Shown here: positions 17,281 through 34,548 of the stretch, piece by piece
Layout of the letters: each line of letters opens with the position of its first letter
How positions within the stretch are numbered: position 1 is the stretch's first letter
Source of the DNA: Gemmatimonadaceae bacterium
Lineage (GTDB): Bacteria > Gemmatimonadota > Gemmatimonadetes > Gemmatimonadales > Gemmatimonadaceae
Assembly (NCBI GenBank): GCA_024654005.1
Contig: JANLGX010000142.1
Location: 1 to 50,927, forward strand
Direction of reading: 5' to 3'
Length of the DNA: 50,927 nt
Position numbers and translations under genes: made by a program
Notes under the pieces: generated by a model
Database searches by the model: none
Told to the model about the DNA's origin: nothing
The model's input: the letters and a program-made list of their open reading frames with translations, nothing else

Positions 17281-18231
17281 TCACTCTGCCTTCAGCGACG
17301 GCCCCGTTCGCATTCCTTGGCGAGAATCACCGGCAAGCGAACGTGTGGTCTCCTCGATAGCGCGTGCTAGTACAGACCGCAGCCGACCGTCTTCCAGCGC
17401 GAGAAGGCCGGCTATCGTGCATCCACCGGGTGTCGTCACATCGTCCCTCAACGCGGCTGGATGCCGGCCTGTGCTGAGCACCATCTCGGCCGCGCCGAGC
17501 GTCATCTGGGCAGCGAGCTCGGTCGCAATGTCACGCGACAGTCCGCATCTCACCCCACCGTCTGCGAGCGCCTCCAGCACGAGGTATATGAAAGCGGGTC
17601 CGCTCGCGGACAGCGCGGTAACGGCATCCAGATGTCTTTCAGCGAGCGTCATGCAGCGCCCCAACGTTGAAAACAGCTCCGACGCCACCGCTAGGTGTGC
17701 GGCGGTCGCGGTGCATCCCTTAGCCAACACGGTCATGCCGTGCCCGATCGCACACGGCGTATTCGGCATCGCCCGGATCACGGGTGCTCGATCACCAACG
17801 ACTTCCTCGATCGCTGGTGTCGTGATCTTGGCCGCGACTGAGATCAGGAGGGGCTTGCTCGCGAATGCGCCGCAAGACACGAGCTCCGCCAGAATGTTCA
17901 GTACGTCGTGGGGCATTACGCAGATGACAACGACCGTAGCGCTCGCACACGCTGTCGCACTATCGGTTGCTACAACCACACCGAGGTCGTGAGCCACGGC
18001 TCGCGCTGCCGCCGTGTCGATGTCCGTAACCGCGATGCGCTCGGCGGCAATTGCACCGGTGCGGACCATCCCGGTCGCGATGGACCTCCCCATCGTGCCG
18101 GCCCCGATGACCGCAATGCGATGATTCGGATAGCGGGTCTGAAAGCGACCTTGAGCCCTTCTCTGGTCGACAGCTGCCGGAACAATGCGTGCGGACTTGT
18201 GCGGCGATCTCGATGGGACGTTACGAGACAT
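17281..18231 (-). CDS. proC: Pyrroline-5-carboxylate reductase
   Basis: Rossmann motif RIAVIGAGTMGRSI, plus ..IRAMPNTPCAIGHGMT.., ..SGPAFIYLVLEALADGG.. and ..TTPGGCTIAGL... The start is taken at the ATG at 18231 inside the 628-aa read-through ORF; the N-terminal 35 aa are uncertain. Confidence 0.85.
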   Translation of the reverse strand: MSRNVPSRSPHKSARIVPAAVDQRRAQGRFQTRYPNHRIAVIGAGTMGRSIATGMVRTGAIAAERIAVTDIDTAAARAVAHDLGVVVATDSATACASATVVVICVMPHDVLNILAELVSCGAFASKPLLISVAAKITTPAIEEVVGDRAPVIRAMPNTPCAIGHGMTVLAKGCTATAAHLAVASELFSTLGRCMTLAERHLDAVTALSASGPAFIYLVLEALADGGVRCGLSRDIATELAAQMTLGAAEMVLSTGRHPAALRDDVTTPGGCTIAGLLALEDGRLRSVLARAIEETTRSLAGDSRQGMRTGPSLKAE

Positions 18232-18275
18232 CGGTATGATCCGGGTGGTTAGCGGATGCGGAGAGGCTGGTTGCC

Positions 18276-18320
18276 AAAAACAAAATCGCCCCGTTCGGCG
18301 CGAGGCTCGAACGGGGCGAT
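18276..18320 (-). terminator. Rho-independent terminator, the 3' end of the aro operon transcript
   Basis: On the minus strand, ATCGCCCCGTTCG-(10 nt)-CGAACGGGGCGAT forms a 13-bp perfect stem, followed by TTTTGTTTTTGG. It lies inside the 628-aa ORF, between the hisIE remnant and proC. Confidence 0.8.
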
Positions 18321-18491
18321 TTCCGTCGGACGGAAACCTGGAATGACTAGCTGCTACTCCCCTAGGAGCACGTGCGCGCGAGCGGCGGCCAGCGCAGAAA
18401 TGCGCTGGGACGAGGGTCGCGGTCGAGGGTTCACGGTGCGGAAAAACATGGTGGAGTCCATCCATTAAGACACGCGAGAGCAACTGAGCCC

Positions 18492-19167
18492 CTATATGCG
18501 CACGTAACGGTGTTCTTGGCTGCTTGATTCCGTGGACCCAGGTTGGCCCTGGACCATGACTGGAGCTGGCGTGCGAGTAGCCAACGCGCCCCTGACCTCG
18601 CTCCACCCCACCCCCAGCCCCCGCAGCGCCACTACTATATGGTACAGGAGATCCGGCGACTTCCTCGACGGCAGCCGCGGCGTTCCCCTCGGACAGGGCC
18701 ATCACCAGCTCGGCGCACTCCTCGCCGAGCTTCTTCGTGCGCAGGTTCCGGTCGGCGAGCAAGACCCGCGTGTAGCTCCCGGACCCATTGCCTGAATCCG
18801 TAGCTCGATCTTGAATCGTCGCATCGAGAACGCTGAGCGCATCGGAACGCACGTCGTCACCAAAGCACGAGATCGTTCCCACGTGACACGCAGGTCCCGC
18901 CGGAGCGACGCGGGCCAACACCGCGTCACCGTCGCAATCGGCGGTGAGCGATACCACACGCTGAATCGAGCCGCTCGTCGCCCCCTTCCGCCACAGCCCG
19001 CGCGTACGGGACATGTAGTGCATCTCTCCGGTCGCGATCGTCCACTCGAACGCATCTCGACTCGCGTGCGCAACCATTACGACGGCTCCGGTCACCGCGT
19101 CCTGCGTCACGACCGTGACCAGGCCGCGCTCGTCGTACTTGAGAGTATCCAGATCGAGCGTGCTCAC
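18492..19167 (-). pseudogene. hisIE paralogue (PR-AMP cyclohydrolase / PR-ATP pyrophosphatase) with a +1 frameshift near its 3' end
   Basis: GTG start with a GTGA overlap to the upstream fragment. The protein is collinear with the hisIE at 24649..25260 up to ..AAAAVEEVA. One extra G, at about 18653-18656, then shifts the frame. Deleting it restores ..DLLYHIVVALRGLGVGWSEVRGAL.. and a stop at 18492. Confidence 0.7.
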
Positions 19168-21490: not shown

Positions 21491-22077
21491 CAGAAGCTCT
21501 TTCGAGTCACGATGCGAAACAACGTGCGATTGTCGGGCACGTCGTCGATATTCTCCAACACGATGGTCAAGCCGTACCTCGCAGCAGCGGCGCGACCGGC
21601 TATCGCAGCCTGCGTGAGGCTACGCCCACTCGCGACGTGTCGAGCCGCGCCTCCCGTGTCGTAGCCCGGAACCGGAGTCAATGCCGGATGGTCGGCGAAG
21701 AAGCGTTTGCATTGCGCGATTGCCATGGGATGGCTCATCACGGTGCGAATTGTGTCGAGCCGCGCTCCGGGAAGAGCCAGGAGACAGTTGCGAATCGGAA
21801 ACAGGATCTCTCTCACAACCCTGAGATCATCCGCTTCTGCCAGAGCTGCCTCGCTCTCCACGACCGGACCAGCAATCGCGTTTCTGATCGGCAGGACACC
21901 GAATTCAACGCTTCCCGTGCTGACTTCTCGAATGACCGCTCGGAAATCGCGCTGCGGACACGATTGCGCCGATCCTTGCCAGACATGGGCGATCACCTCG
22001 TCGCTGTAGGCACCGTGCTCCCCCTGGAAAGCAACCCGCTGTATAGGTGCTTTCACGCTGGTACTGCCTCGGACCAT
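21490..22077 (-). CDS. pheA: Prephenate dehydratase, catalytic PDT domain only (no ACT domain)
   Basis: Contains [15 protein letters not shown].., ..[14 protein letters not shown].., ..[10 protein letters not shown].. The protein stops right after DNRTLFRIV, where an ACT domain normally begins. An alternative GTG start at 22056 makes a GTGA overlap with the aroF stop. Confidence 0.8.
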
Positions 22078-22949
22078 CGGTTCGCGCCCAGCACTCTCTC
22101 GCTCGTACCGTGACTCTGCTCGCGAACGTCGCGCTCCGCCGCCAGAGCGTAGCGACGGATGGTTTCCATAACGCGCTCGAATGCGGGGATGGTGAGCGAC
22201 TGCGGCCCATCGGATTTTGCTGTCGACGGGTCCGGGTGCACTTCGATGATGAGTCCGTCCGCCCCGACCGCAACGGCAGCGCAAGCCAGGGGCCCAATGA
22301 TGTCTGCTCTGCCGGCCGCGTGACTCGGATCAACTATCACGGGAAGGTGGGTCTCGGACTTGAGCACCGGGACCGCCGAGAGATCGAGAGTGTTGCGGGT
22401 TGCGGTCTCGAAGGTGCGAATGCCCCGCTCGCAGAGCACTACTCGAGGATTCCCTTGAGCCATGACATACTCCGCCGCGAGCAACAAGTCGTTTATCGTG
22501 GCTGACAGACCGCGCTTCAACAGAACCGGCTTCCCGCTTCTCCCAACCTCCGCAAGCAACGCGAAATTCTGCATGTTGCGCGCGCCTACCTGCAGCAAGT
22601 CTGAGTATTGACTGACAAGCTCGACCTGGCGGGTGTCCATTACTTCCGTAGCGACAGGTAGTCCGGTTTCGGCACGAGCTTCCGCGAGCATCTCGAGTGC
22701 TTGCTCACCGAGCCCCTGGAACGCATACGGCGATGTCCGCGGCTTGAACGCACCGCCTCGCAGCATCGACGCTCCTGCCGCCTTTACGGCCCGGGCGGTC
22801 TCGAGCAACATCGCTTTGCCTTCGACCGCACAGGGGCCGGCGATCACGACGAGACTGCGACCGCCGATCACGCAATCATCGGTGACCGTAACTTCGCTCG
22901 CGTTCTTGATGACATTCGTTTGCCGCGCAACAAGCTTGTAGGACTGCAT
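22053..22949 (-). CDS. aroF: 3-deoxy-7-phosphoheptulonate (DAHP) synthase, type I-beta, without an N-terminal regulatory domain
   Basis: Contains IAGPCAVEG.., ..[19 protein letters not shown].., ..CERGIRTFE.., ..VDPSHAAGR... It is collinear with the unadorned archaeal-type enzyme. The ATG at 22949 is used because the listed 22973 start is a TTG lying inside the terminator T-run. Confidence 0.9.
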
Positions 22950-22971
22950 CGGACGTTGGATTGGAGGAAAC

Positions 22972-22998
22972 AAAAAAAGGCCCCCGTGTTCGGGAGCC
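22972..22998 (-). terminator. Intrinsic terminator in the aroF 5' leader (the attenuator terminator)
   Basis: On the minus strand, GGCTCCCG-AACA-CGGGGGCC is followed by TTTTTTT. The T-run ends 22 nt before the aroF ATG. No minus-strand gene lies upstream that it could terminate. Confidence 0.8.
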
Positions 22999-23034
22999 TT
23001 GGAGAGGCATGCAGGAAGAAGCGTCAGCTTCTAG

Positions 23035-23121
23035 TTATACGAATGCACGCGATCTGGCCCCCGGGGTTGGCCCCGAAAAAAACCAGATAAAATAGAAGTT
23101 GGTGGCGAGCATTCTCGGCAT
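23035..23121 (-). CDS. Candidate aromatic-amino-acid leader peptide, MPRMLATNFYFIWFFSGPTPGARSRAFV
   Basis: A 28-codon ORF with a second in-frame ATG at 23112. It contains TTC TAT TTT ATC TGG TTT TTT (23097->23077). It lies between a promoter-like element and the leader terminator. Confidence 0.65.
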   Translation of the reverse strand: MPRMLATNFYFIWFFSGPTPGARSRAFV

Positions 23122-23130
23122 TGTACGGCA

Positions 23131-23159
23131 ATTGTATGTGTGCTCAGAAAAATGCGCAA
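23131..23159 (-). promoter_or_regulatory. Sigma-70-like promoter for the aro leader
   Basis: On the minus strand: TTGCGC (23159->23154), a 17-nt spacer, then TACAAT (23136->23131). A second TACAAT overlaps the first leader ATG. The region is locally AT-rich in an otherwise GC-rich genome. Confidence 0.5.
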
Positions 23160-23393
23160 GTGCATGGATCGACAAAATTCGGAGTACAAGAAGCGAGTCC
23201 GCGTGATCGCAAAAAGAATCGGTCGATGACGTAGGGGTATAGCGCGTTTCGCGCGTCGTTTTACGCATCACACCGCGCATCGTTTCTGTCTCGACGGCCC
23301 GGTTCGCTGGCGAGACCTCTCATCGCACGCGCGGGCGGCGCAGCAAAAGTGGCCTCTTTTATCTCTGCGTCCGAAGTAGTCTCCGTTGACTCC

Positions 23394-24648: not shown

Positions 24649-25260
24649 TCACGCGGCATTCAAGGCTCTCGCAGCCAGTGCGCCCCTGACCTCGCTCCAC
24701 CCGACGCCCACTCCTCGAAGCGCCACTACTATATGGTATAGCAGGTCCGCGGCCTCCTCGACCGCAGCCGCGGCGTTCACCTCGGACAGCGCCATCACCA
24801 GCTCGGCGCACTCCTCGCCGAGCTTTTTTGTGCGCAGGTTCCGGTCTGCGACCAAAACCCGCGTGTAGCTCCCGCTGCTATCACTCGAATCGCCGGCCCG
24901 CTCCTGCACCGTCGCGTCGAGGACGCTGAGCGCATCGGAACGCACTTCGTCTCCAAAGCACGAGATCGTTCCGTCGTGACACGCCGGCCCCGCCGGAACG
25001 ACACGCGCCAATACCGCATCACTGTCGCAGTCGGCCGTGAGTGACACCACGCGCTGAGTCGCGCCGCTGGTCGCTCCTTTCCGCCACAGTCCGCGCGTGC
25101 GAGACAAATAGTGCATTTCTCCGGTTTCTACCGTCCACTCGAGCGCATCACGGCTCGCGTGCGCGACCATCAGAACGACGCCACTGACCGCGTCCTGTGT
25201 CACGACCGTGACCAGGCCGCGCTCGTCGTACGCGAGACTATCGAGATCGAGCGTGCTCAT
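24649..25260 (-). CDS. hisI: Bifunctional phosphoribosyl-AMP cyclohydrolase / phosphoribosyl-ATP pyrophosphatase
   Basis: MSTLDLDSLAYDERGLVTVVTQD...CHDGTISCF (HisI part), then ..RTKKLGEECAELVMA...DLLYHIVVAL (HisE part). ATGA overlap with the hisN stop. Confidence 0.9.
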   Translation of the reverse strand: MSTLDLDSLAYDERGLVTVVTQDAVSGVVLMVAHASRDALEWTVETGEMHYLSRTRGLWRKGATSGATQRVVSLTADCDSDAVLARVVPAGPACHDGTISCFGDEVRSDALSVLDATVQERAGDSSDSSGSYTRVLVADRNLRTKKLGEECAELVMALSEVNAAAAVEEAADLLYHIVVALRGVGVGWSEVRGALAARALNAA

Positions 25261-29631: not shown

Positions 29632-30962
29632 GCCGCCTCCATTGGCTGTGATTTGTTGCCGGGTCCGACCGCAGACAGCCACGCCGCCCGTGCATGGCCG
29701 TTCAACCCTTCGGCGTCCGCGATGACGGCGACGTCCGGGGCGAGCGACCGCCGAGCGTCCGGGGAAACCCACTGCAGCGTGGTGAAGCGCATGAAGTCGC
29801 TGGTCGAGAGTCCGGACCAGCTCCGCGCCGCGCCGCCCGTCGGAAGCACGTGGTTGGCGCCCGTCAGGTAATCGCCGAACGCGACTGACTGCCCCACGCC
29901 GATACAGATCGTACCGGCGGTCGTGATCTGCATTGCAACGTCACCCGGATCGGATAGCGCGAGGAGGAGGTGCTCCGGGGCGAACGCGTTGGCGAACGCG
30001 ACCGACTCGTCCAGCGATGCAGTCAGGATCCCGCCTGATCTCCGCAGCGATTCCGCGATTATGGCTCTGCGCGGAGCGGAGGCCATCTCGGCCGCGACTC
30101 CGCCCAACACCGCTCTGGCCAGCGCCTCGCCAGGGACGATCGCGATCGCTATCGCGTCGGCATCATGCTCGGCTTGCGCGATGAGCTCCGCCGCGATCTG
30201 TGCGGGCGACGCCGTGCCGTCAGCAAGGATGAGGACTTCGCTCGGGCCGGCCGGACAATCGATTGGGACGACGTCCGCCAGGCGTCGCTTCGCCTCGGCG
30301 ACGTATGCGTTCCCCGGTCCGACGATGCGATCCACGCGCGGGATGCTCTGCGTGCCGAACGCCATCGCCGCGATCGCGCCCGCTCCGCCGACGGCGAATA
30401 CGCGGCTGGCGCCCGCAAGCTCGGCGGCAGCCAGCGTAACCTGGGCGGGAAGACCGTCGGCGGTCGGCGGTGCGCACACAATGATCTCGGGGACGCCGGC
30501 AACGCGCGCAGGAACCACGGTCATGATCACGCTGCTCGGGTACGCTGCGCGGCCGCCGGGCGCGTAAACGCCGACTCGGCGGATCGGATCAGCTCGCCGG
30601 ATGATTGTAATCCCGGGTTCCGGCGAGACCTCTATCGTGCGCGGCTTGGTCGCAGTGTGCACAGTCGCGACGTTGCGCAAGCCGCGCTCGAGCGCGCAGC
30701 GCAGGTCGGGCGGGATCTTCGACAACGCGGCGCGCCATTTTGCGCGAGGAACCTCCAGCGAGTCTGCCTTTGGCTCGCCCAGGTCCCGCGCGACATCCCG
30801 CAGCGCGGCGTCGCCCCGCTGCGAGACGTCGGTGATGATCCCAGCGGTCGTCAAGCGAACAAGGTCGGAGGTTTGCCGCAGGAGCCGCCGCTCCAGTATT
30901 GCGCGGTCTTTCTGCGCGAGATCGCGGAGCGCTCCCGTCCACCGCAGAACGGGTGTCGTCAT
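29628..30962 (-). CDS. hisD: Histidinol dehydrogenase
   Basis: ..VYAPGGRAAYPSSV.., ..AGPSEVLILAD.., ..QAEHD.., ..GDYLTGANHVLPT... ATGA overlap with the hisG stop. Confidence 0.9.
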   Translation of the reverse strand: MTTPVLRWTGALRDLAQKDRAILERRLLRQTSDLVRLTTAGIITDVSQRGDAALRDVARDLGEPKADSLEVPRAKWRAALSKIPPDLRCALERGLRNVATVHTATKPRTIEVSPEPGITIIRRADPIRRVGVYAPGGRAAYPSSVIMTVVPARVAGVPEIIVCAPPTADGLPAQVTLAAAELAGASRVFAVGGAGAIAAMAFGTQSIPRVDRIVGPGNAYVAEAKRRLADVVPIDCPAGPSEVLILADGTASPAQIAAELIAQAEHDADAIAIAIVPGEALARAVLGGVAAEMASAPRRAIIAESLRRSGGILTASLDESVAFANAFAPEHLLLALSDPGDVAMQITTAGTICIGVGQSVAFGDYLTGANHVLPTGGAARSWSGLSTSDFMRFTTLQWVSPDARRSLAPDVAVIADAEGLNGHARAAWLSAVGPGNKSQPMEAA

Positions 30963-31810
30963 GGCATCAACCGCTCGATGCGGGTGACGAGGATCGCGCG
31001 CCCGCCGAGCCCCTTGATGTCCGCCACCGCGCGGTACACGCGACTTGCCGGCACGACCGCGTGCACGGCGACCATCGAGCCGCCGTTCAGAATCTCCGAA
31101 ATCGTGGGGCCGTCCATGCCGGGGACGGCTGATTTGAGATCGCCGAGCCGGTCGCGCGGGACGTTCGCCATCAGGTAGCGCATTCCGCGGGCGCGGAGGA
31201 CGGACTCGAGCGCGATTCTGACGTCGCCAACTGCACTGGCGGTCGGGTAGCCCGTGTCGCGGACGATCAGGCGCGCCGTCGAAGTGAGCACCGTGGCGAT
31301 CTCACGGAGCCCGTTCCCGCGCAGTGTCGAGCCGGTGGAGGTGAGATCCACGATCGCGTCGGCGATTCCGAGCCGCGGGGCGCTTTCCGTAGCACCTGAG
31401 ACCGGAACCAGCTCGACCGACTTGCGCGCACGGGCGAAGTAGTCGGCGGCGAGGCGGGGGAATGCCGTGGCGATGCGCGTACCGGGAGGGATCTCTTCTA
31501 TAGAAGTGATGTCGCTCTCCTCGCGCGCGGCGACGACGAGCCGGCACTCGCCGAAGCCGAGGTCGAGCGCACACTCGAGCGGGCGGGCTGACTCGAGCAC
31601 GAGGTCCCAGCCGGTCACGCCGGCGTCGGCGGCGCCGTCGGCGACGAACTCGGGGATGTCCTGGGCGCGGACGAAGATCGCCTCGATGTCGTCCCCGATC
31701 ATGGAGCTGAGCGCGCGCTCCGGCCGTGCGGCGCCGAGCCCGGCTTCGTCGAGCAGCTCGAGCGTGGCGTCAGCGAGTCGTCCTTTATTGGGCAGTGCTA
31801 GTCGGATCAT
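30959..31810 (-). CDS. hisG: ATP phosphoribosyltransferase, long form with the C-terminal regulatory domain
   Basis: MIRLALPNKGRLAD.., ..DLTSTGSTLR.., and a C-terminal ~75 aa HisG_C-like tail. The ATG at 31810 is used; the longer ORF extension crosses the leader terminator. Confidence 0.9.
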   Translation of the reverse strand: MIRLALPNKGRLADATLELLDEAGLGAARPERALSSMIGDDIEAIFVRAQDIPEFVADGAADAGVTGWDLVLESARPLECALDLGFGECRLVVAAREESDITSIEEIPPGTRIATAFPRLAADYFARARKSVELVPVSGATESAPRLGIADAIVDLTSTGSTLRGNGLREIATVLTSTARLIVRDTGYPTASAVGDVRIALESVLRARGMRYLMANVPRDRLGDLKSAVPGMDGPTISEILNGGSMVAVHAVVPASRVYRAVADIKGLGGRAILVTRIERLMP

Positions 31811-31839
31811 GGAATGGTCAAATGATTGGTGCCGGATGC

Positions 31840-31865
31840 AAAAAGCCCGTCGCGTCGCGACGGGC
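31840..31865 (-). terminator. Intrinsic terminator in the hisG 5' leader
   Basis: On the minus strand, GCCCGTCG-CGACG-CGACGGGC is followed by TTTTT. The T-run ends 29 nt before the hisG ATG. No minus-strand gene lies upstream. Confidence 0.75.
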
Positions 31866-31907
31866 TTTCTGGCATAACAGGGGACATCGCCGGGTCCAGC
31901 GCTCCGA

Positions 31908-32003
31908 TTACAATCCCCCACACATGACAAGCCGCCGCGATCGATTGTCTCGATCATGGGTGTGCCGACGGTGCCACTTATGAGTCACAGAGGAGTATTG
32001 CAT
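31908..32003 (-). CDS. Candidate His-rich leader peptide, MQYSSVTHKWHRRHTHDRDNRSRRLVMCGGL
   Basis: A 31-codon ORF with 4 His codons in a 9-codon stretch (31982->31956). Alternative hairpins and the leader terminator follow. There is no obvious SD and the His codons are not consecutive. Confidence 0.4.
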   Translation of the reverse strand: MQYSSVTHKWHRRHTHDRDNRSRRLVMCGGL

Positions 32004-32102
32004 GACGAGTGTGTGGAGGGGCGGATGCCCCGATATGAGTAAGACGCCTGAGGAGGCGTAAACCCCTATACGAGCTTTTGACAGGGCTTGGCATTGTCCC
32101 GC

Positions 32103-32207
32103 GGAGCGTGCTACGGTGAGCTCCCCCAGTCGCGCCTACGCTTCGCTCGCAAACAGCGCTCGCTCGCTAAGACGGCGCTTTGGGGGAGCCCACCGCGAGC
32201 ACGCTCC
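32103..32207. repeat. Long imperfect hairpin element A (~26-nt arms)
   Basis: GGAGCGTGCTACGGTGAGCTCCCCCA ... TGGGGGAGCCCACCGCGAGCACGCTCC. An inner GCGCC/GGCGC stem encloses TACGCTTCGCTCGC... The loop core is shared with element B. Confidence 0.6.
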
Positions 32208-32253
32208 CATGCCTGGAGTGCCGGAGCGCCGGCGCTCCGCGCGCCTGGTCGAG

Positions 32254-32424
32254 CTACGCATCTGCGACGTGAAGGCGGCCGTGTTTGCGCGATTTTGGCG
32301 CAGGACGCACGACGATTTCCACGTCGTGCCCAAGGGCCGTGAGAAAGGCCAGCAGGCGTTGCGTGGAGAAGCCGCCGAAGCGCCCCCGCAGCATGCGCGA
32401 GACTTTCGGCTGGTCAATACCCAT
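32254..32424 (-). pseudogene. Fragment of an XRE-family HTH (antitoxin-like) gene
   Basis: The minus-strand frame reads ..QAAAALMGIDQPKVSRMLRGRFGGFSTQRLLAFLTALGHDVEIVVRP.. This is the C-terminal two-thirds of a ~95-aa XRE/HigA-type protein. The frame is closed by a stop ~25 codons upstream of the only ATG, and all three frames are closed further upstream. Confidence 0.5.
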
Positions 32425-32537
32425 GAGCGCCGCGGCTGCCTGGGGCGCGCTTATTCGCCTACGACTGAGGGGATTTCGTGATTCTCTTACGTTACGGGCG
32501 CCCTATCGTGGCGGATGCCGTATGAAGGAGATAGAGT

Positions 32538-33083
32538 ATGGCAATGGCGATCAGCGTACCCCTCTATACCGTGGACGATCTCGACGGATTCCCACGCGAT
32601 GGGAACCGGTACGAGCTGCTGGACGGTGTGCTGCTCGTGACGCCGGCCCCGTCGATGTCGCACCAACTGGTCGCGAGTCGGCTGCAGCTTCGGCTCAGCA
32701 ACGCAGTCATGTTGCCGGGCATGGCGAACGTCGTCGGTCCGGGAGCGGTGGTGCTACTGCCGAAGACCCAGCTCGAGCCCGACATACTCGTGTTTCCCGC
32801 GGGCATTCGCGCCAGCGCTCACTGGCGCGAGGTGCACGAGCACTGGCTCGCGGTCGAGATCCTGAGTCCTTCGTCGCGCGTCTACGATCGCGAGTTCAAG
32901 CGCGACGCATATCTGGCGCTGGGCGTTCGCCAGGTGTGGTTGGTGGACCTGCCGGACAGGAGCGTCGAGGTGTGCCGAGGTGCGGGGGATAGTGAGACGG
33001 TGCGTGACGTCGTGCGGTGGCGCGTGCCGGGGATTGACACGCTCGTGTCCATCGGACTCGAGGAGATCTTTGCTGGTTTGTAG
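32538..33083 (+). CDS. Uma2-family (DUF820) putative endonuclease
   Basis: ..DGNRYELLDGVLLVTPAPSMSHQ.., ..EPDILVFP.., ..LAVEILSPSS...D...K...Y...GV.. is the Uma2 signature. GAAGGAG lies 7 nt upstream of the ATG. Confidence 0.85.
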   Translation: MAMAISVPLYTVDDLDGFPRDGNRYELLDGVLLVTPAPSMSHQLVASRLQLRLSNAVMLPGMANVVGPGAVVLLPKTQLEPDILVFPAGIRASAHWREVHEHWLAVEILSPSSRVYDREFKRDAYLALGVRQVWLVDLPDRSVEVCRGAGDSETVRDVVRWRVPGIDTLVSIGLEEIFAGL

Positions 33084-33984: not shown

Positions 33985-34548
33985 CTACTCCTGCAGCACT
34001 TTCCGGAAGTAGTCGGGTAGGCTCACAGACAAGGGTGAAAGCTCCGCGGCGGGCTGCCATTCGATCCGATCGGTCAACAGCTCCGGCCGATCGTCGTCCG
34101 GCCGCCATCGTTCAACGAGCCGGGCGTCGAGGTCGACGATCCAGTACTCCGGCACGCGCTGGCGCTGATATAGCCGGCGTTTGGTGATCCGGTCCGCGCG
34201 GGCGCTGCTCGGCGAGATCACCTCGACCACCAGCAGCAATCCACCCAAGTCGGCATACGACCGGGGACGGCGACCCTCCAGCAGCGGCGCTACGAAGATA
34301 TCGGGCTCGACCACAGTGCGGTCGTCGTACTCGACGTCGGCCGGCGCGATCACGGTCAGGCCAATGCGGAATCGGTCCACGTAGTCCGCGATCAGCCGGG
34401 CGAGCTCGAACGTGGCGAGCTGGTGGGGAAGCGCCGGCGACGGCGTCACCAGCAGCTGTCCCTCGACGAGCTCGTATCGATTGCCGTCCGCGGGCAGATC
34501 GCGCCACCGCTCGACGGTCCACTCCGGTGCTGTCTCAACCATACCCAT
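33985..34548 (-). CDS. Uma2-family (DUF820) putative endonuclease, second copy
   Basis: ..DGNRYELVEGQLLVTPSPALPHQ.., ..EPDIFVAP.., ..LVVEVISPSS...D...K...Y...VPEYWIVD... Confidence 0.85.
   Translation of the reverse strand: MGMVETAPEWTVERWRDLPADGNRYELVEGQLLVTPSPALPHQLATFELARLIADYVDRFRIGLTVIAPADVEYDDRTVVEPDIFVAPLLEGRRPRSYADLGGLLLVVEVISPSSARADRITKRRLYQRQRVPEYWIVDLDARLVERWRPDDDRPELLTDRIEWQPAAELSPLSVSLPDYFRKVLQE

Follow-up and report, generated by a model that had tools for sequence, protein, structure and literature searches.

The window analyzed here is an entire 50,927-bp contig (66% GC) of a metagenome-assembled genome (MAG), whose HisG has relatives at 71% identity labelled Gemmatimonadaceae. 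It contains a complete histidine operon, hisG-D-C-H-A-B-F-N-IE, headed by hisG (30959..31810, minus strand) and extending on that strand down to approximately position 24649. HisG has 283 amino acids (aa) and is of the long form with a C-terminal regulatory domain (TIGR00070, E 3.5e-62; TIGR03455, E 1.5e-23). Directly upstream of the operon, on the same strand, lies the element considered in this work, a putative His-responsive transcription attenuator composed of a short leader open reading frame (ORF), a set of alternative RNA pairings and an intrinsic terminator. All parts of this leader are on the minus strand.

An ATG at 32003..32001 opens a 31-codon ORF that ends in a TAA at 31910-31908 (31908..32003, peptide MQYSSVTHKWHRRHTHDRDNRSRRLVMCGGL), as read directly on the minus strand and in agreement with the mechanical ORF list. 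Four His codons, at positions 8, 11, 14 and 16 (CAT 31982-31980, CAC 31973-31971, CAC 31964-31962, and CAT 31958-31956), fall within nine codons in the order HKWHRRHTH and define a regulatory codon stretch at 31956..31982. Downstream of the ORF, an intrinsic terminator (31840..31865) is both readable in the sequence and recovered by folding. Its arms, GCCCGTCG(C) and (G)CGACGGGC, place GCCCGTCG at 31865-31858 and CGACGGGC at 31852-31845 on either side of a CGACG loop, and are followed by a T5 tract (31844-31840). The 29 nucleotides (nt) from 31839 to 31811 separate this tract from the hisG ATG at 31810. With a free energy (ΔG) of -23.4 kcal/mol, compared with -9.1 ± 2.4 kcal/mol for shuffled sequences, the hairpin is more stable than each of 2000 shuffles. 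A built-in promoter and terminator scan and a separate strict terminator scan both missed it because flanking A/T and G-U pairs lengthen the stem into the T-run, a tool artefact.

A sequence-only reading of this stretch had described the 31-codon ORF with four His codons in nine, the terminator at 31865 to 31840, 29 nt before hisG, and a 9-bp complementarity between the two. Its coordinates, peptide, hairpins and complementarity are all correct on direct reading of the minus strand. It erred in stating that there is no upstream minus-strand gene for the hairpin to terminate: a truncated ORF at 32254..32481 on that strand, approximately 390 nt upstream of the terminator, matches positions 33-80 of the 80-position Pfam profile HTH_37 (helix-turn-helix; E 3.6e-15). 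This ORF is probably a gene remnant. It is not kept beside hisG in relatives and is therefore not the owner of the terminator.

Three segments of the leader RNA form overlapping 1:2, 2:3, and 3:4 pairings in silico. Region 1 (31966..31982), the 5' strand of the 1:2 stem in the minimum-free-energy (MFE) fold, overlaps His codons 8 and 11 and spans the UGG-CAC-CGU-CG stretch. Region 2 (31919..31940), the switch strand, has two alternative partners: region 1 and, by way of UCGCGGCGGCUU, the terminator 5' arm. Region 3 (31855..31869) comprises this 5' arm and flanking bases and is common to the 2:3 and 3:4 pairings. In the 1:2 stem, 31982-31966 pairs with 31937-31919 around a small nested hairpin (ΔG -24.8, ViennaRNA MFE). 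This hairpin (31938..31956) consists of GATCGA (31955-31950), the loop GACAA and TCGATC (31944-31939), and is extended in the fold to (U)GAUCGA and UCGAUC(G), 31956-31950 pairing with 31944-31938. It had been proposed to be the 1:2 element itself; the hairpin does form, but the functional 1:2 stem is larger and encloses it. In the competing antiterminator, TCGCGGCGG (31940-31932) is complementary to CCGTCGCGA (31863-31855) with one G-U pair, and ViennaRNA joins region 2 (31940-31926 and further) to region 3 (31855-31869). Regions 2 and 3 are each common to two helices, and the arrangement is therefore mutually exclusive.

The effect of a ribosome on these pairings was modelled by cutting the RNA at the terminator loop and masking the ribosome footprint. 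With the A site on codons 1-17, all four His codons included, the terminator 5' arm is sequestered with a probability of 0.87. Sequestration falls to 0.31-0.54 once the A site reaches codons 18-28, where it is over region 2. Masking folds of 75 leaders of the family described below follow the same trend (0.83 vs ~0.52). In this model, the His codons would thus lie at the very end of the range in which stalling leaves region 2 unoccupied.

Comparison with other genomes places the leader in a conserved family. We collected the 80 best HisG matches among species-representative genomes (loci L001-L080), which are only 57-65% identical to the window protein and come from Gemmatimonadaceae/Gemmatimonadales, Myxococcaceae (Cystobacter, Archangium, Myxococcus, Corallococcus, and Pyxidicoccus) and Candidatus Eisenbacteria. 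A script finds a GC-rich terminator upstream of hisG in 75 of these loci; among the rest, three have imperfect stems that can be seen by eye, and one has no upstream sequence. The terminators lie 14-100 nt before hisG, have the form GGCCCGTCC..GGACGGGCC followed by a T-run, and share the CCCGTC/GACGGG core with the window. Nearly all of the 80 loci have a short His-rich ORF 85-113 nt upstream of the terminator, with a His count of mostly 5-8 (for example ..HHHHAHHHGPTGRG.., MAQRHHHHVHHHHGPTGRG.. and MHLVSIHHHPAHHHRFGPDG..), and in nearly all of them the motif GGCCCGACGGGTC follows the His run.

An unbiased column-pair scan of 71 of these family leaders (alignment A2, from which the window clade was left out) recovers exactly three helices. 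The terminator helix is 98.7% paired and has three covarying pairs in addition to its invariant CCCGTC/GACGGG core. The second helix, ACGGGTC with the terminator 5' arm GGCCCGT, is 89% paired, a value that drops to at most 44% when the strands are slid by one column; it shows no covariation because both strands are nearly invariant. The third helix joins the core of the His run, CACGCG, to a downstream CGCGTG (85% paired); five of its six pairs show double changes, and its score is reached by none of 500 shuffles. RNAalifold applied to the same 71 leaders returned the terminator alone, and the other two helices come only from the column-pair scan.

From the 71 distant leaders, without the window or its close relatives, we built a covariance model, R1. 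Its best match in the whole window is the his leader itself (31836-31973, minus strand), with 28.9 bits, an E-value of 2.4e-5 and full-length coverage of the model (positions 1-145). In 80 independent metagenome hisG loci (L090-L169), R1 matches directly upstream of hisG in 78, and the two loci without a match have less than 90 nt of upstream sequence. Full-length scores in this set are 57-114 bits, apart from one at 38.9, so the 28.9 bits of the window lie below them. Taken together, about 155 hisG loci of Gemmatimonadota, Myxococcaceae and Candidatus Eisenbacteria carry a predicted His-rich ORF, a strand complementary to the terminator 5' arm and the terminator. The comparison of hisG upstream regions that the sequence-only reading had proposed as a check thus finds the His-codon ORF conserved across relatives, and we classify the window leader as a diverged member of this his-leader family.

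The window differs from the bulk of the family in its bases. It has no run of at least five His codons around a central GCG/GTG that pairs with GCGCGTG and is followed by GGCCCGACGGGTC; in its place are HKWHRRHTH and GAUCGA..UCGAUCGCGGCGG. By alignment, then, the helices of the window are analogous to those of the family but made of different bases. The likeness to the R1 family lies in the position and strand relative to hisG, the CCCGTC..GACGGG core, a similar ORF length, a strand complementary to the terminator 5' arm after the His codons, and the spacing from His codons to terminator, which is approximately 117 nt in the window vs 85-113 nt. Unlike in the family, the His run is eroded, GGCCCGACGGGTC is replaced by TCGCGGCGG, which is matched to a terminator stem lengthened by GCG, the 1:2 stem is of different bases, and the ATG lies approximately 29 nt behind a promoter-like block rather than 5-10 nt.

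A different kind of antitermination device, such as a T-box, a riboswitch or an RNA-binding protein, with the ORF incidental, appears very improbable to us. T-box control has been described for his genes of Firmicutes and Actinobacteria (PMC9413887). The leader of the window is too short for a Stem I/specifier domain, and such a device would leave the family-wide enrichment of His codons unexplained. The window sequence GUGGCACCGUCG superficially resembles the T-box core GGUGGNACCGCG; the motif GUGGCACC is missing from the relatives with 87% and 71% HisG identity, and in the window it pairs with region 2, not with the terminator arm. An Rfam scan of the whole window at gathering thresholds matched no family, RF00514 and RF00230 included, and 31700-32500 gave no RF00514, T-box or riboswitch model even at E≤10. 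The same scan of 20 relatives gave no family at its gathering score. The sequence-only reading had named a T-box or another riboswitch as the alternative explanation of the leader, and no such model matches in the window or in these relatives.

Several sub-threshold Rfam matches were rejected. Matches to microRNA (miRNA) hairpins are due to chance and come from an imperfect inverted repeat of approximately 105 nt (32103-32207, arms 32103-32129 and 32181-32207), which is single-copy in the window and separates the his promoter block from the HTH remnant. The terminator gave matches to Thr_leader (E 0.89) and the rnk leader. A match to the Burkholderia small RNA ncS037 in a canonical relative scored 30.5 bits against a gathering score of 112, and the consensus of that family has no His-codon run.

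The window belongs to a smaller clade that was assembled by protein search and has HisG identities of 96%, 88%, 87%, further members of the 96% cluster, and 71%; a metagenome scan for closer relatives found none above 71% HisG identity. The leader ORFs of the six relatives encode MQNSSVTHKWHRRHTYDRDFRSRRLVMCGGL (L084), MRNTSVTHKWHRQHNHGRELRSRRLALCGGF (L085), MRTSSKHHEWHRQYTHDRNIRSRRLALCGGF (L081), MRPSSMNHEWHRHLHHGRITGRGGSPCVEDC (L086), MRSSFDYRWPHHHQGWALGRGESPCVEDC (L082), and MPRTNSHIALHHRHGHTGRGGVVVRVWRSA (L088). The ATG is invariant in all seven clade sequences, the ORFs have 29-31 codons with 3-5 His each in the same stretch, and the stop codon stays at the same alignment position across HisG identities of 71-96%. 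His codon 11 is present in all seven. R1 scores form a graded series (L088 67, L086 46, L082 37, L085 34, L081 32.5, the window 28.9, and one more 27.9 bits). L086 and L088 retain the ..GRG.. signature of the family and are therefore a bridge to its main body. The upstream neighbours vary, from a divergent extracytoplasmic function (ECF) sigma factor to a PIN/DUF5615 gene and a 761-aa protein, with the truncated HTH fragment in the window, and despite this the leader stays with hisG.

At the nucleotide level, TCGCGGCG is invariant in the seven clade sequences although it is read in different frames, and GTGG(G/A)GGATTG and the terminator are conserved as well. From the conserved TGG-CAC-CGT to TCGCGGCGG, the window has 27 nt and L086 26 nt, and from TCGCGGCGG to the stop codon, 24 nt and 25 nt, respectively. 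Two compensating 1-nt indels thus leave both ORFs at 31 codons, and region 2 and everything beyond it are therefore read in different frames in the window and in L086. Different frames that end at the same stop therefore point to selection on the RNA and on ORF length or translation end, not on the peptide, which is what an attenuator would predict. In the five closest sequences, 20-23 of the 23 pairs of the window 1:2 stem are kept; the changes are between G-U and G-C, plus one double change from T-A to C-G. The terminator stem of the clade is lengthened, with CCCGTCGC..GCGACGGG compared with CCCGTCC..GGACGGG in the family, and the switch strand is TCGCGGCGG compared with GACGGGTC. The switch strand thus differs in step with the terminator stem, so complementarity between the two is preserved from one clade to the other. 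Arg was also considered as the regulatory amino acid, since the ORF has six Arg codons, and was rejected: their positions are not conserved, the frame differs between relatives, and the CG-rich stems account for Arg.

Two further arrangements are found within the HisG clade. In L081 (GCA_040960095.1, HisG 96%), the promoter block, leader, and terminator are tandemly duplicated upstream of hisG (2505-2990). Only the proximal copy is intact: in the distal one (2505-2745), the start codon is missing, the frame is changed by 1 nt and region 2 is mutated (TCACGCCGG), although its terminator remains perfect; R1 matches both copies, with 32.5 and 31.6 bits. In L172 and L173 (HisG ~70%), there is no His leader and no family-type terminator, and hisG follows another gene after approximately 137 nt. 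Some lineages of this HisG clade have therefore lost the attenuator or never acquired it.

A number of observations weigh against a working attenuator in the window, and the first concern the window sequence itself. The 2:3 duplex, at -20.9 kcal/mol, is modestly more stable than shuffles (-16.1 ± 2.4 kcal/mol, p≈0.04), and for the 1:2 duplex the comparison does not reach significance (p≈0.11). Clusters of at least four His in nine stop-free codons occur 16 times in the six frames of the window, which amounts to a chance of approximately 3% for a given 200-nt stretch. For the 200-nt fold, the z-score is no lower than -1.6. Judged on the window by itself, the evidence is weak and only the terminator is clearly non-random; the caution of the sequence-only reading was warranted.

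These weak single-sequence statistics would also be expected if an ordinary terminator or insulator stood beside a chance ORF, open frames being cheap at 66% GC. The truncated HTH ORF approximately 390 nt upstream on the same strand could be taken as the gene served by such a terminator. A variant of this explanation places the start of hisG at the in-frame ATG 31957, which opens a 332-aa ORF (30959-31957) that crosses part of the leader, then the terminator, and continues into hisG; in the 90% protein cluster, one member (P0125) is recorded as 333 aa, and gene callers thus sometimes mis-extend hisG. The extended frame would have to cross the -23 kcal/mol terminator hairpin, and HisG homologues align from residue 1 at ATG 31810. 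The element is linked to hisG in approximately 155 loci with varied upstream genes, and the R1 match argues against chance. Coincidence, already contradicted by these comparative data, is in our view the least credible of the explanations. It is the comparative data, not the window alone, that settle the case.

A second group of opposing observations concerns expression. A promoter-like block (32033..32062) can be read as TTTACG (32062-32057), an 18-nt spacer and TCATAT (32038-32033). It is conserved in alignments A1 and A3 and is part of the upstream segment that the window clade conserves best (GGCGTCTTACTCATATCGGGGC). The built-in scan found no consensus sigma-70 promoter in the leader region. 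The block ends 29 nt before the leader ATG, and the intervening sequence is C-rich and has no Shine-Dalgarno (SD) sequence, as the sequence-only reading had noted. The lack of an SD is the norm in the family, where only 4 of 71 leaders have an SD-like 4-mer; hisG itself has no obvious SD either. In 44 of the 50 loci with a good promoter (TTGACN-17/18-TAnnnT), the distance from the end of the -10 hexamer to the leader start codon is 5-10 nt, and most family leader ORFs appear to be on leaderless mRNAs. Unlike in most of the family, the ATG of the window is not placed for leaderless initiation, and its own leader copy is probably not leaderless. Myxococcus RNA-seq coverage on the canonical member L036 is flat in both orientations, with no start or stop visible, and is uninformative. 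A sequencing-run search for the window sequence retrieved metagenomes with at most 27% of its words and no RNA run. In addition, the equilibrium folds form the antiterminator also without any ribosome and do not separate this state from that of a stalled ribosome, which means that the switch has to operate kinetically, as classical attenuators do.

The remaining points concern the degree of divergence. Approximately 15 of the 29 bits of the R1 match come from the terminator alone, and the score of the window is the lowest but one in the family. The 2:3 pairing is conserved in the clade without covariation, and its 7-bp core is invariant in the five closest sequences. The caveat that the His codons are interspersed is real: the window has only four, scattered, and its clade 3-5, compared with mostly 5-8 in the family, and the close relatives L081 and L084 have Tyr in place of His at codons 14 and 16, by which His sensing may be weakened.

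The His content, which is the lowest in the family, the exchange of His and Tyr among close relatives, and the model scores, likewise the lowest, would fit a relic attenuator that has lost effective His sensing and whose present role is constitutive partial termination or a general sensing of translation coupling rather than of histidine. The replacement of both the family GGCCCGACGGGTC strand and the leaderless promoter points in the same direction. The decayed second copy in L081 shows that such decay occurs, and in the 70% relatives L172/L173 the leader is missing altogether. Against a relic stands the maintenance of the start codon, the length and stop position of the ORF, region 2 and the terminator down to 71% HisG identity, compensating frameshifts included, and of His codon 11 in every one of the seven clade members. 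A further subgroup of Gemmatimonadaceae likewise works with 3-4 His codons (for example ..RHAHSHHGLTGRG..), and trpL of E. coli senses with only two Trp codons. We therefore regard loss of sensing as unlikely, while giving it more weight than the other alternatives.

The proposal that the leader is a ribosome-mediated His attenuator is thus supported by conservation, linkage to hisG, and the R1 match (E≈2e-5), which ties it by homology to a His-rich leader family. Descent of the window element from a His-responsive attenuator is in our judgement nearly certain. That it still operates as a His-responsive, ribosome-mediated (leader-peptide) transcription attenuator of the his operon is probable. 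More tentatively, and with about as much to be said against it as for it, the window leader may represent the most diverged branch of a so-far-undescribed family of his-attenuator RNAs, with a switch that was rebuilt in place in the window clade.

The mechanism outlined next is inferred with respect to ORF translation, the start of transcription, dependence on His and kinetics. From a promoter located approximately 20-30 nt before the leader ATG, an RNA would be transcribed whose 31-codon ORF would be read by a ribosome. With an ample supply of charged tRNA-His, this ribosome would pass codons 8-16 and then region 2 (codons 21-28) to reach the UAA at 31910-31908. Region 2 would be occluded while regions 3 and 4 are made, and the 3:4 hairpin would form and cause termination at the U-tract (31844-31840), with an expected RNA of approximately 165-190 nt. 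When tRNA-His is scarce, the ribosome would stall with His codon 8, 11, 14 or 16 in the A site and cover region 1 (31982-31966), leaving region 2 (31940-31919) free to pair with region 3 (31869-31855). Formation of 2:3 would block the terminator and allow read-through into hisGDCHABFN-IE. In the absence of translation, both 1:2 and 3:4 would form and transcription would terminate.

This organization follows the general attenuation model (PMC1183508). Like hisL of E. coli and Salmonella (RF00514), the window has a short ORF with His codons directly upstream of hisG, a rho-independent terminator before the operon, and overlapping 1:2, 2:3 and 3:4 pairings with the same logic. Unlike hisL, it has four scattered His codons vs seven consecutive ones and a peptide of 31 aa vs 16 aa, no SD, no RF00514 match even at E≤10, and an origin in a Gemmatimonadota-like MAG. 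Leaderless short ORFs rich in Cys codons act as attenuators in mycobacteria, where their signal is cysteine and the mechanism reported for them differs from a classical terminator switch. They share with most members of the his family, as inferred here, a regulatory short ORF on a leaderless mRNA.

According to the survey of Naville & Gautheret (2010), leader-peptide systems were at that time known only in Proteobacteria and Actinobacteria, to which it added the Bacillus hisS/hisZ leaders (PMC2965389). These are His attenuators outside Proteobacteria and were likewise found via a terminator and a short His-rich ORF; they differ from the window leader in the genes they control, in their unrelated sequences and in their host, Firmicutes (PMC2965389). 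T-box his leaders (PMC9413887) are also cis-acting RNAs that choose between terminator and antiterminator over his genes, but they sense uncharged tRNA directly and need no ORF, and the window has no match to a T-box model. Our literature search, whose coverage is incomplete, retrieved no account of his leaders from Myxococcus or Gemmatimonadota. The family appears to be uncatalogued, being absent from Rfam and from the papers found.

A second candidate leader is present in the window. An ORF at 23280..23035 (minus strand) contains ..MLATNFYFIWFFSGPTPG.., and a terminator-like hairpin, GGCTCC-CGAACACG-GGGGCC followed by T7 (22998-22979, minus strand), lies directly upstream of genes for 3-deoxy-D-arabino-heptulosonate 7-phosphate (DAHP) synthase (22973..22053), prephenate dehydratase, and aroA. 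The region 22979-23280 looks like an aromatic-codon leader-peptide attenuator. The aro leader mentioned in the sequence-only reading thus exists as an ORF and hairpin upstream of DAHP synthase, which supports the idea of attenuation at no fewer than two operons in this organism.

Other features of the window include a second HisI/HisE-like segment (residues 4-171 of a mechanical ORF at 17281-19167, minus strand), which is located in one open frame, upstream of proC. A 23-nt sequence able to form a hairpin, GCTCGGCGCACTCCTCGCCGAGC, occurs in identical form at 18708-18730 and at 24801-24823, the latter inside hisIE of the operon. These observations point to a partial duplication of hisIE. Two Uma2-family genes (PF05685, putative restriction endonuclease-like), at 32538-33083 (plus strand) and 33985-34548 (minus strand), flank the region upstream of the his operon.

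Ten Myxococcaceae loci (L008, L015-L017, L036, L038, L040, L041, L056 and L058) carry the same leader RNA as the Gemmatimonadota loci. The His run, GGCCCGACGGG and the CCCGTCC terminator are shared by Gemmatimonadota, Myxococcaceae and Candidatus Eisenbacteria, with HisG proteins that are 57-65% identical. This distribution suggests that the his operon moved horizontally between phyla together with its attenuator. If the family is as proposed, its spread over three groups would imply horizontal transfer of operon and leader, and a leader peptide made from a leaderless mRNA in most members would be a notable property. The window clade would then be a branch with an eroded His run (3-5 scattered codons), a new region 2 (TCGCGGCGG) that matches an altered terminator stem, and compensating frameshifts that keep the length of the ORF and not the peptide.

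The mechanism itself is a textbook one and unsurprising, but nearly all documented cases are from Proteobacteria, Actinobacteria, and a few Firmicutes. For annotation, the leader ORFs are unannotated, Rfam has no model of them, and hisG is sometimes over-extended through the terminator to 332-333 aa. The window clade constitutes a natural series in which start codon, ORF length, switch strand, and terminator are held while the peptide and the His run drift. The family of approximately 155 members also occurs in the cultivable Myxococcus, Cystobacter and Corallococcus, which makes it directly testable. Gemmatimonadota are an abundant soil phylum, hard to culture and with essentially no experimental data on gene regulation, and in them attenuation appears to govern the synthesis of His and probably that of aromatic amino acids too.

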